Of a stretch of 64,000 nt of DNA, positions 17,876-23,484 are shown piece after piece. The stretch comes from Chloroflexota bacterium. Lineage in GTDB: Bacteria > Chloroflexota > Dehalococcoidia > Lucifugimonadales > JADFKI01. Location: contig JAQBUT010000015.1 in NCBI GenBank assembly GCA_027623195.1, positions 20,062 to 84,061 on the forward strand, in the 5' to 3' direction. The notes below the pieces were generated by a model. It was not told where the DNA came from and did no database searches. It was given only the letters and a program-made list of their open reading frames with translations. Numbering within the stretch: the first letter of the stretch is position 1; every line of letters starts with the position of its first letter. The position numbers were made by a program, and so were the translations under genes.

Positions 17876-19162
17876 ATGGCAAGACGATTGGTAGGGCATA
17901 TCGTAAACCGCAAAGGCCGGAAGAACGGCGACGAACCGGTTGAGATTCCTGTGGCCAAGGACCTTCAGAAAGACCCTGCCAGCATGAGGCGCGAAGACGA
18001 AATCTCGTTTTACAGTCGTGAATACCCCTTGGAAAGCTTCGCGGTGGCCGAGAGCGCTTCGGCGGAGTGGGCTGCAGGCGTACGGGATGAGTTTTCACCT
18101 GAGACGACTGAGTTATATGAAAAATTCCAGAAAGAGATGGAGCCTGCCGTAGAGTGGGTTCGGCATTCTGGAGAACTGAAACCCACCTGCGAGCCCACGG
18201 GCGAAGACGTGACCGAGGCTCTGACCAACAGGGCGCGTGAGTTGGGCTATGGCGAGGTGGGCTTCACCCGCTTCGACAGGCGCTACCTGTACCAGGTTCG
18301 GCGCAAGGATGTCCGTGCGGATCTTCCCAACGCCATTTGTCTGGCCCTGGAGCAGGACTACTCGGCAACCCAAACCCTGCCAAGCCTGGAAGCTGAGGAG
18401 GCTCAAGGCGAAGCATATAAGCGCCAGGCTCAATTGGCCGAGGAGCTGGTGAAATTCATCAACTCAATAGGTTACAGTGCCCAGGTCTCCGGCCCGACGT
18501 GGCACTTCGGCCCGATGATTCCAATGTTTGTACAGGCTGGCCTTGGGCAGCTAGGCGTCAATGGGCAGCTGTTGTCGCCGCACTTCGGGTCCCGCGCGCG
18601 CTTGCAGATCATTCTCACCGACGCCAAGGTTACCGCTGGCAAGCCCGTAGACTACGGCGTGCACAAGTTCTGCGAAATTTGCCAGGTCTGCTTTATGCGG
18701 TGTCCGGGCCGGGCCATTCAGGGCCAGCGCCTCTGGTACCGAGGAGTCGAGAAGGCCAAGCTTATTTACAAGCGGTGCCGTCCTGTGATGGCGCGATACT
18801 CTGGTTGCGGCGTCTGCATGAAAGTGTGTCCGGTACAGAAGTATGGTATGAAGCCTGTAATGGAACACTACATCGAGACCGGCGAAATTCTGGGCAAAGG
18901 AACGCCGAATCTTGAAGGGTACGAACTGCCAGACAAGGGCTACTTCCGTCCGGGCAAGCTGCCCGTATTCGGAGCGGCGTTCTTCGATATGCCAGTGGGA
19001 CGGACCGAGGACCACATCGTCGAGGAGTACAAAGAAGGTCTTGCTAAGGCTTCTTCTCAGGAGGACCGGGAAAAGGTCTGGGGGAAGTATCGCGAGAGAA
19101 TGGAGAAGTCCCTGGAAAAGCGCAACTCCATCATAGATATGGGCATGGATTTGGCGAATTAG
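17876..19162 (+). CDS. Reductive-dehalogenase/QueG-like protein with two 4Fe-4S motifs
   Basis: AGLGQLGVNG...PHFGSRARL...TD; FCEICQVCFMRCP; CGVCMKVCP. Confidence 0.8.
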   Translation: MARRLVGHIVNRKGRKNGDEPVEIPVAKDLQKDPASMRREDEISFYSREYPLESFAVAESASAEWAAGVRDEFSPETTELYEKFQKEMEPAVEWVRHSGELKPTCEPTGEDVTEALTNRARELGYGEVGFTRFDRRYLYQVRRKDVRADLPNAICLALEQDYSATQTLPSLEAEEAQGEAYKRQAQLAEELVKFINSIGYSAQVSGPTWHFGPMIPMFVQAGLGQLGVNGQLLSPHFGSRARLQIILTDAKVTAGKPVDYGVHKFCEICQVCFMRCPGRAIQGQRLWYRGVEKAKLIYKRCRPVMARYSGCGVCMKVCPVQKYGMKPVMEHYIETGEILGKGTPNLEGYELPDKGYFRPGKLPVFGAAFFDMPVGRTEDHIVEEYKEGLAKASSQEDREKVWGKYRERMEKSLEKRNSIIDMGMDLAN

Positions 19163-20884: not shown

Positions 20885-21084
20885 AACAATCTAAGTTTAC
20901 AGGTCGGCCGACGAATTCGCCATTTCAATTTGCACCTGTTTGCTTGTCGCTTTGGGGCTTGTAAGGGTTGGGACTTCTACGGCCAATTATCGACTTGGCC
21001 TCGATGGGGGTGTTACACGTTCGGTGTGTTATTTTGCGGCCCCATTTACCGACTGAAGCTATTTTCCGTGCTTATATGCGCATA

Positions 21085-21113
21085 TTGACACACTGATGAA
21101 GCTGTGATAAATT
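21085..21113 (+). promoter_or_regulatory. Sigma70-type promoter
   Basis: TTGACA-N17-TAAATT with an extended -10 TG, upstream of the Rdx gene. Confidence 0.65.
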
Positions 21114-21215
21114 CGAGTTCAACTAGCATAACAGTGGCATAATCTCTTCTTTATGGAGAGATTAACCAGCGAATATATTTATTTGCCGGGCCGCTGAATT
21201 TTAAGGAGGATATGC

Positions 21216-21500
21216 ATGGCTGGAGAAGCAAAAGTCGACGCCGAAATTATTTACTGCGTACCTTGACAGCATCTTGGTACTGCGGCCTGGACGGCCAATG
21301 AGTTATTTGCCCAGGGTGGCAAGGACGTCTCGATTAAGATTACGCCCGGCGTAGCCGGCGTTTTCCAGGTGTTCCTCGACGGCGAAAAGGTCTTCGATAG
21401 GAAAGAGGAAGGCAATATCTTCCCTGACCTGACGAGGGTTAAGCAGATGAGGGCAATTCTGCAGGAGAAGATCAACTCTGCTCCCGTAGCAGCAGACTAG
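21216..21500 (+). CDS. Rdx (SelW/SelT/SelH-like) selenoprotein, CxxU motif, in-frame TGA at 21264-21266
   Basis: AAGGAGG RBS; MAGEAKVDAEIIYCVP(U)QHLGTAAWTANELF...ITPGVAGVFQVFLDGEKVFDRKEEGNIFPD... Homology continues across the TGA. Confidence 0.88.
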
Positions 21501-21522
21501 TTCTTCAAGGAATCGAAGATTT

Positions 21523-21557
21523 AAATGCCCCGGACTGATTCAGTCCGGGGCATTTTT
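21523..21557 (+). terminator. Intrinsic terminator
   Basis: AAATGCCCCGGACTG / CAGTCCGGGGCATTT followed by a T-run. Confidence 0.85.
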
Positions 21558-21614: not shown

Positions 21615-22442
21615 ATGCATTTGCCCGACATTTGGAATCAGTTCGATAGTATTGTCAGGTCCCCCGACGAGGAGATAGACTTGGCTCGTACTGCATTGCT
21701 AATTGCAGCTACGGAATATCCTAAGCTAAACGTGGAGCGGGAGCTGTATAGGCTCGGTCTCTTGGCCGACGGCATTGCTCACCGAGTGTATGACGACCCC
21801 AGCCCGCTATACCATCTGAACACGCTGAGCGAGTACCTCTTCGACGAGGTCGGCTTCCGGGGCAACTACGAAAACTACTACGACCCCAAGAACAGCTTCT
21901 TCAACGACGTTTTGGAACGCCGCCTGGGCATACCCATTACTCTTTCCATGTTGTATATCGAGGTTGGCAGGCGCGTGGGCGTGCCCTTACAGGGAATCGG
22001 CATGCCGGGACATTTCCTGGTGAAACACGCCGATGTAGATGATCACTTCGTCGATCCGTATCAGAATGGCGTACTTCTCACGACAGCCGAATGCAAGGCC
22101 AAATTTAACCAGGTAACCCACGGAGACCTGATTTGGGACGAACGTTACCTCAGCCCAGTGAGCAGCCGCGAATTCGTGGCTCGTATGCTCAGAAACCTCA
22201 AAGCAATATACCTTCAGCGGCGAGACTATACGCGGGTGTTGTCCACCATAGACAGGCTGCTATCCATTCAGCCTGAGGCCACCGAGGAGCGCCGCGATCG
22301 CGGTGTCGTCAACTACCGGCTCGGCAATCACGAAGAGGCCCTTCAAGACCTTAATACGTATGTCAGCACCGTCTCGAATCCGTCCGACGCCGGGACCGTA
22401 CACCAGCTTATAGACCAGATCCAAGGTATCCTGGACGACTAA
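21615..22442 (+). CDS. SirB1-like transglutaminase-core plus TPR protein
   Basis: YYDPKNS, GIPITLS, MPGHFLV, RMLRNLK, RDRG. Confidence 0.9.
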   Translation: MHLPDIWNQFDSIVRSPDEEIDLARTALLIAATEYPKLNVERELYRLGLLADGIAHRVYDDPSPLYHLNTLSEYLFDEVGFRGNYENYYDPKNSFFNDVLERRLGIPITLSMLYIEVGRRVGVPLQGIGMPGHFLVKHADVDDHFVDPYQNGVLLTTAECKAKFNQVTHGDLIWDERYLSPVSSREFVARMLRNLKAIYLQRRDYTRVLSTIDRLLSIQPEATEERRDRGVVNYRLGNHEEALQDLNTYVSTVSNPSDAGTVHQLIDQIQGILDD

Positions 22443-22557: not shown

Positions 22558-23484
22558 ATGACACAAATAATTCCCGAAGACTACGTCTGCAAAGTCCAGA
22601 AACCAGCGGACTTCGACCAGTTCTGGGACGATGTCCTGGGACAGGCCGTGCTGATCCCTTTGAACGCGGAGACAGTTGCCGATCCGCTAAGGACCTCAGA
22701 TGATATCGAAACGTTCCAGGTGTTTTACGACAGCCTGGACGGCGTTCGGATTGCGGCCTGGTACTGCGTCCCCAGAAAACGGACGGGCAGGCTTCCAGCG
22801 GTGCTGTTCCTACCCGGATACCAGAGCGATCCTCCCATACCAAAGGACTGGGCCAGACGAGGTTATGCCGCAATCACGGCCGCGCCACGGGGAAAGCTGA
22901 GAAGCAACGGTCAGTTCAATCCAGGCTACCCTAATCTGCTGACCCACAACATTATCGACCGCAATACCTACTCGTATCGAGGCTTTTACGTCGACGCCTG
23001 GCGAGCAGTGGACTACCTGCTGAGCCGCGACGAGGTAGACGACAGTAGAATCGGTGTGGCGGGCAGCAGTCAGGGCGGAGGCCTAACCATTACGACTGCG
23101 GCCATGAGACAGGAAATTGCTGTTGCCTCGGCCGGTGCGCCCTACCTGTGCGGCTTCACGGACGCCATCGACCTGGAGGTCAGCTATCCATACGAGGAGA
23201 TCAACGACTACCTGCGGCTGCATCCAGGGCACAGGGCGGAGGTGGAACGTACGCTGGCCTACTTCGACGGCATAAGCTTCGCCGATCGAATAAGTTGCCC
23301 AACCATCGTGAACATCGGCTTGCAAGATAACGTGGTGCCCCCTGAGACGGGATACGCGCTGTTCAATGCCATAGGAAGCTCCGACAAGAGGCTGTATGCC
23401 TACGATGGTCACGGTCACGAGGCAGGTCGCTACAAGCACAATGCCGTAATAGCCGATTTCTTCGCCAAACACCTCAAGCCATAA
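22558..23484 (+). CDS. Acetylxylan esterase / cephalosporin-C deacetylase (CE7) family
   Basis: PADFDQFW, GSSQGGG, GLQDNVVPP, GHGHE. Confidence 0.9.
   Translation: MTQIIPEDYVCKVQKPADFDQFWDDVLGQAVLIPLNAETVADPLRTSDDIETFQVFYDSLDGVRIAAWYCVPRKRTGRLPAVLFLPGYQSDPPIPKDWARRGYAAITAAPRGKLRSNGQFNPGYPNLLTHNIIDRNTYSYRGFYVDAWRAVDYLLSRDEVDDSRIGVAGSSQGGGLTITTAAMRQEIAVASAGAPYLCGFTDAIDLEVSYPYEEINDYLRLHPGHRAEVERTLAYFDGISFADRISCPTIVNIGLQDNVVPPETGYALFNAIGSSDKRLYAYDGHGHEAGRYKHNAVIADFFAKHLKP

Follow-up and report, generated by a model that had tools for sequence, protein, structure and literature searches.

The question raised by this locus is whether a TGA triplet lying in frame at codon 17 of a short open stretch ends a reading frame, marks a damaged one, or is read through as selenocysteine (Sec). 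The DNA comes from a bacterium of the Chloroflexota (class Dehalococcoidia), and the window referred to throughout is the whole stretch of 64,000 nucleotides that was analysed. The answer put forward here is that the stretch is a stand-alone Rdx/SelW-like gene of 94 residues in which UGA is very likely decoded as Sec, giving a predicted Cys14-x-x-Sec17 redox protein. This reading is drawn because of the family to which the protein belongs, the conservation of the TGA, a covarying hairpin behind it, and a complete Sec machinery encoded in the source genome.

The reading frame, its family and its surroundings

The preliminary description of this DNA had proposed a transcription unit with a TTGACA-N17-TAAATT promoter, an AAGGAGG ribosome-binding site, a 94-codon frame carrying C-V-P-TGA and a strong terminator, all of it missed by the ORF track. 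Each of these elements lies where that description had put it, including the promoter-like site and the terminator-like stem, and the gene is indeed absent from the plain list of ORFs of at least 60 aa. The features of the locus are as follows.

21085..21113, + strand: site resembling a sigma-70-type promoter, TTGACA-N17-TAAATT, its -10 hexamer preceded by TG (10/12 consensus matches)
21203..21209, + strand: ribosome-binding site AAGGAGG, with the ATG 6 nt downstream (from the sequence; relatives have a GGAG-rich site before the ATG)
21216..21500, + strand: Rdx/SelW-like gene of 94 codons with C14-V-P-U17 (profile, alignment, fold-model and selection evidence)
21264..21266, + strand: in-frame TGA, putative Sec codon, on the second Cys of the CxxC in PDB entries 2OKA, 3DEX, 2OJL and 2OBK
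21284..21296, + strand: SECIS-type hairpin GGCC-UGGAC-GGCC, its loop 21 nt behind the UGA (fold and covariation)
21523..21555, + strand: intrinsic-terminator-like hairpin with a 15-pair stem (9 G-C) and a T run (from the sequence)

The frame opens with the ATG at 21216, carries TGC-GTA-CCT-TGA at 21255-21266 and closes with a TAG at 21498-21500, yielding 94 residues when the TGA is entered as U. A crude scan of the window for Sec candidates returned, besides this TGA, two short shadow frames, and the gene is the sole PF10262 gene of the source genome.

With U entered as C, the read-through protein scores 54.8 bits against PF10262 (Rdx; cut-off 22.6) and 37 bits against TIGR02174 (CXXU_selWTH; cut-off 34.2), which bears out the Rdx assignment of the preliminary description. 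A score of 38 bits against the SelTWH_Campy equivalog NF041051, below its cut-off of 88, places the protein outside that subfamily. The sequence before and after the TGA aligns to a single Pfam/NCBIfam model, and likewise to solved Rdx proteins: 2OKA, 2OBK, 2OJL, 2P0G, 2FA8 and 3DEX match by sequence at E values from 2.7e-11 to 4.5e-8. Every one of the 46 aligned members hits TIGR02174 with E <= 0.001, and Cys14 is invariant in the 46 rows. An AlphaFold2 model built from this 46-row alignment, with C in place of U, reached a pLDDT of 92.4; its top Foldseek ranks are 2OJL, 2OKA, 2FA8, 3DEX, 2P0G and 2OBK (TM 0.69-0.74, 26-39% identity), and the next rank after these bacterial Rdx entries is mouse SelW (2NPB; TM 0.77, 13% identity). 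The predicted structure is thus a thioredoxin-like Rdx fold with the CxxU at the end of strand 1. The C-terminal consensus of the family, given as tGxFEI(V) in PMC10650576, appears here as VAGVFQV, retaining G, F and V and with Q in place of E. In relatives this position has LQV, LEV, MEV or FEV, and the consensus appears to be loose in bacteria, because solved Cys members also deviate from it (FRI, FVV).

The Rdx gene is probably monocistronic, with a promoter-like site of its own before it and a terminator-like site behind it. A permissive promoter-like pattern, TTGAC-N16-18-(-10), was found upstream of the Rdx gene in 15 of the 16 loci examined, and comparable terminator-like hairpins, as judged by eye, follow most related Rdx genes. 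Two metatranscriptome contigs from a relative with about 91% identity span 21199-21506, and contigs of this relative bridge the TGA in 4/4 runs compared; the runs were picked by way of the Rdx gene itself and may belong to one campaign, the contigs show neither strand, ends nor level, and they are taken as a hint that the gene is expressed. The lack of RNA contig cover over neighbouring genes carries no evidential weight.

Downstream lie a SirB1-like transglutaminase-TPR gene (21615-22442, +) and an acetyl-xylan-esterase-family gene (22558-23484, +), present in this position in 24/33 and 22/33 loci, respectively, all of them in family f1. In family f1 the SirB1-like gene comes next after the Rdx gene at 24 of 25 loci, and it does so at none of the 8 other loci; for this reason, and because it stands behind the terminator, it was rejected as an operon partner and the arrangement is taken as synteny. 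Further upstream, 17876-19162 (+) encodes a 428-aa protein resembling reductive dehalogenases and QueG (TIGR02486, 115.8 bits, below the cut-off of 160), a relative of which is directly upstream of the Rdx gene in 5/33 loci.

The hairpin behind the UGA

The preliminary description named no SECIS element, and the hairpin at 21284-21296 is an addition to it. Bacterial SECIS elements are described as having a loop of 3-9 nt, a stem of 4-16 bp, a G in the first two loop positions and a distance of 16-37 nt from the UGA, with an energy of -7.5 kcal/mol or lower in the consensus model (PMC13188914, in the part of that review drawn on here). The geometry of the window hairpin lies within these bounds, with a 5-nt loop that has G as its second base, a 4-bp stem and a distance of 21 nt, and its energy is borderline, at -5.7 kcal/mol alone and -7.2 to -9.0 kcal/mol depending on the flanks. 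It is present in the minimum-energy fold of 6/6 stretches. The region is no more stable than its shuffles (z from -0.24 to 0.91), and since thermodynamic stability gave no signal, covariation was used instead as evidence for a SECIS.

The hairpin covaries at all four pairs and is mostly absent from Cys homologues. All four pairs form in 56/61 TGA genes of close genomes and in 24/24 from the wider phylum, as against 2/29 TGC/TGT genes, 20 of these 29 controls belonging to one distant clade. Counted as distinct 15-mers, four pairs are formed by 16/20 and 10/10, where random synonymous recoding would give 2.6 and 1.5. The fraction of paired cells is 0.94 at the true register and at most 0.16 at 42 slid registers, in a comparison whose register was chosen from the window's own sequence and whose related genes are not independent. 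In a set limited to one TGA gene for each of 36 families, taken from 85 TGA genes, RNAalifold found the same four pairs unprompted, 94.4% of cells are paired with 29 two-sided changes, slid partners reach at most 59.7%, and none of 500 shuffles attained the observed pairing. The outer pair, which falls on third codon positions, is C-G 16 times, G-C 14 times, A-U 3 times and U-A twice. Taken from the window sequence alone, the stem arises in 14% of random synonymous recodings. The contrast is weaker in family f36, the closest control, where four pairs form in 3/7 TGA copies and 3/27 Cys copies; the other 4 of these 7 TGA copies keep three pairs. The alignment cleanly illustrates how third codon positions retain an RNA structure throughout a phylum, and a SECIS model for the Chloroflexota could be seeded from it.

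Conservation of the TGA and competing readings

Among 61 related genomes searched, matches were found in 51, at 63 places, with the source genome included. All 63 were inspected at the active-site column, with one alignment row (L111) shifted three codons by hand: the codon is TGA in 59, TGT in 3 (CTQC-type paralogues) and GAT in 1, and every one of the 51 matching genomes has a TGA copy. A TGC or TGT codon in close relatives would, by the preliminary description, have spoken for a mutation or a sequencing error; the relatives instead carry TGA. Across the phylum, PF10262 matches occur in 121/301 genomes with TGA and TGC/TGT forms mixed. A contig from the DNA run of a second study (X2) covers 20900-21305 and differs at 2 letters, both outside the TGA codon. 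Because the TGA is kept in the relatives' matches as well as in this contig, it is not a sequencing error. In the 77 codons behind the TGA, comparison with two same-genus genomes gives 20 and 15 synonymous changes against 1 and 1 amino-acid changes, and codons 18-29, which hold the hairpin, are unchanged in both. Judged from these substitutions, the frame behind the TGA is under strong purifying selection.

Some relatives have further copies. At L107 (G055:C10:159847-160468) a CxxU Rdx gene stands in tandem with an SxxD copy, in which the hairpin stem is broken and which is likely redox-inactive. At L110 (G047:C1:295297) and L112 (G030:C1:1238974) lie CxxU Rdx paralogues whose C-terminus is extended by about 40-50 residues.

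Use of Sec by this organism had been proposed in the preliminary description from the window, which holds no sel genes. The source genome, 87% complete, proved to encode selA (453 bits, contig C46), selB (311 bits, a 624-aa frame on contig C36), selD (385 bits, contig C46, with a single in-frame TGA of its own at CAG-U) and, with anticodon TCA, a tRNA-Sec (63.4 bits, contig C46). Among 50 relatives with a TGA copy, selA scored over the cut-off in 46 and selD in 49; the 74%-complete genome G060 has a TGA copy and neither selA nor selD over cut-off. The selD genes (L011, G000:C46:6726-7649, and L065-L094) have a hairpin of their own, with a 3-nt loop 27 nt behind the UGA. This loop starts with G in 28/29 parsed relatives that form the stem and in one that does not form it; in the source genome it reads UCG, and an alternative hairpin with loop GUG folds there. 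In another genome, tRNA-Sec, selB, selD and selA are clustered within about 5 kb (G352:C2:30616-35234); G352 has a second selB and tRNA-Sec on C1, and its one PF10262 match is a Cys form.

That the gene is dead, its TGA due to a nonsense mutation or to faulty assembly, is extremely improbable. Plain gene calling gives no ORF here, and 26/32 database matches of the subclade lack the YCVP motif and are 66-73 aa long, but the short entries inspected (6 of the 26) begin behind the TGA and hence are miscalls; the retention of the TGA in 59/63 matches and in the second-study contig, together with the selection on the codons that follow, also speaks against a dead gene. It is just as hard to credit that TGA is read generally in this genome as Trp (code 4) or Gly (code 25), leaving residue 17 as something other than Sec. 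Database entries P0002-P0004, P0039, P0042, P0047, P0048 and P0051 do have W at the Sec position, but most likely they come from gene callers that picked code 4 on short contigs, the longest under 1 kb. RF2 is present (474 bits, cut-off 370), TGA terminates 204 of 1225 ORFs of at least 300 aa in a crude count that includes shadow frames, tRNA-Trp has anticodon CCA and, among the called tRNAs, only tRNA-Sec has TCA, so that TGA is otherwise a stop in the source genome; in the Rdx gene, moreover, it falls on a Cys column.

A third alternative accepts recoding of the UGA through SelB and a SECIS and differs over what the protein does: Cys14 and Sec17 would serve as a metal ligand or an interaction redox sensor, or the gene would act as a selenium sink. 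This is quite unlikely, though less so than either reading that denies Sec. It draws on the Glu of tGxFEI(V) being Gln here, on the lack of an operon partner pointing to a substrate, and on the fact that no bacterial member with demonstrated activity figures in the portions of PMC1088965 and PMC13188914 consulted; a search of the literature, from which subscription journals were mostly out of reach, returned no functional study of a bacterial Rdx protein. A non-catalytic role sits poorly with a CxxU/CxxC predicted to end strand 1 of a thioredoxin-like fold and with a Cys14 that never varies in the alignment, and a selenium sink would not explain the CxxC forms in the same subclade.

Under the Sec reading, established bacterial Sec biology suggests how the gene would be expressed. 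SelD would make selenophosphate and SelA would convert Ser-tRNA(Sec) to Sec-tRNA(Sec); SelB would then bind the hairpin, whose loop lies 21 nt beyond the UGA, and bring the Sec-tRNA to codon 17 in competition with RF2. Full-length protein would depend on a supply of selenium and on the machinery, and without them only a 16-residue product would arise. From motif and fold model, the protein itself probably cycles between a reduced selenol/thiol state and a Cys14-Sec17 selenenylsulfide, as a small cytoplasmic component of thiol-disulfide exchange or of an antioxidant relay.

Known relatives, Sec/Cys pairs and database records

That SelW-like CxxU proteins are the most abundant selenoproteins of the sea has been on record since 2005, and in this respect the gene is an ordinary one and its recognition an annotation fix. 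According to the parts of these sources used here, the SelW-like family ranked first in the Sargasso Sea set with 48 genes (PMC1088965) and in the GOS set with 427 (PMC2398784), and a 2026 review treats SelW-like proteins under PF10262 as high-confidence predictions of largely uncharacterized function (PMC13188914). The use of Sec by Dehalococcoidia is also on record, since two such genomes, with 49 and 46 selenoprotein genes, are in the BSepDB top ten as excerpted from PMC13326102.

The window gene shares with the prokaryotic SelW-like CxxU genes, so far as those sources describe them, membership of PF10262, the CxxU motif, a UGA with a bacterial SECIS-type hairpin directly behind it, small size and an aquatic setting, and differs from those sets in its Dehalococcoidia lineage and its YCVP-U subclade signature. 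Ten Prx/SelW reads are mentioned in the consulted part of the GOS study (PMC2398784), whereas the window gene has no adjoining peroxiredoxin gene. With the solved bacterial proteins 2OKA, 2OBK, 2OJL, 2P0G, 2FA8 and 3DEX it shares the YC-x-x-C...AAW and PG-x-x-G-x-F pattern and the predicted fold, but they have Cys at the second motif position where the window protein presumably has Sec, and it reads QHLGT for their QWLLR-type stretch and FQV for their FEI/FRI. It has a longer C-terminal helix where the CTQC homologues have a DRIAPGRSLGH-type tail. The CxxU and the fold are common to the window protein and mouse SelW; relative to the eukaryotic Rdx family (SelT, SelW, SelH and SelV), as outlined in the available text of PMC10650576, the window gene would have a bacterial in-frame SECIS rather than one in the 3'-UTR, and its protein retains tGxFEI(V) in part.

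Family f36, which belongs to the same order, has a CxxC form that falls in the same YCVP subclade. Matches occur in 37 of 41 f36 genomes and selA in 30 of 41. The TGA copy is present in 17 genomes, all 17 with selA, and in none of the 8 selA-negative genomes that have a match; the Cys form occurs also in many selA-positive genomes, in some of them beside a Sec copy. A Sec copy and a Cys copy are separated by about 300 bases at L188 (G366:C1:1251074-1251660), L189 (G396:C19:6234-6795), L201 (G361:C1:121960-122518) and L202 (G379:C66:3506-4063). The 14 f36 Cys rows tested form one clade (support 98/95), and the Cys copies are mostly without the SECIS stem; the Cys rows nest among Sec rows in two trees, and a third tree puts them at an open branching close to the subclade's base. 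From these trees and copies, a duplication in f36 followed by a change from Sec to Cys is the likely history.

Two genomes, G219 and G360, have no selA, selB or selD over cut-off (a tRNA-Sec-like match in G360 is a tRNA-Ser), and they had suggested that the f36 CxxC is a simple reversion after loss of the Sec machinery. That idea was rejected on the 41 genomes, because selA is present in 30 of them and the Cys form is found in many of those 30. It is conceivable, if doubtful, that the YCVP-U subclade has a built-in selenium-free backup, in which the f36 CxxC paralogue would be the sole form in genomes without selA. Were this so, such Sec/Cys pairs would act as a switch for conditions rich or poor in selenium, and the two forms would make a matched pair for finding out what the most abundant selenoprotein family of the ocean does. 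The paralogue pairs provide a handle on Rdx function. In the 2006 genome set the excerpted listing gives no Sec-to-Cys event for SelW-like proteins (PMC1794560).

The main value of the analysis lies in the corrected annotation of a SelW-like gene, with little that is otherwise new. The 32 database matches of the subclade divide into 26 without the active-site motif, 3 that read W at the Sec position, 2 that read C and 1 that reads L; function surveys of these bacteria therefore miss or misread the protein, given the entries that lack an active site and those with Trp. The entry with Leu, P0008, is a full-length homologue that comes from one 585-base contig, and its Leu may be a read error.
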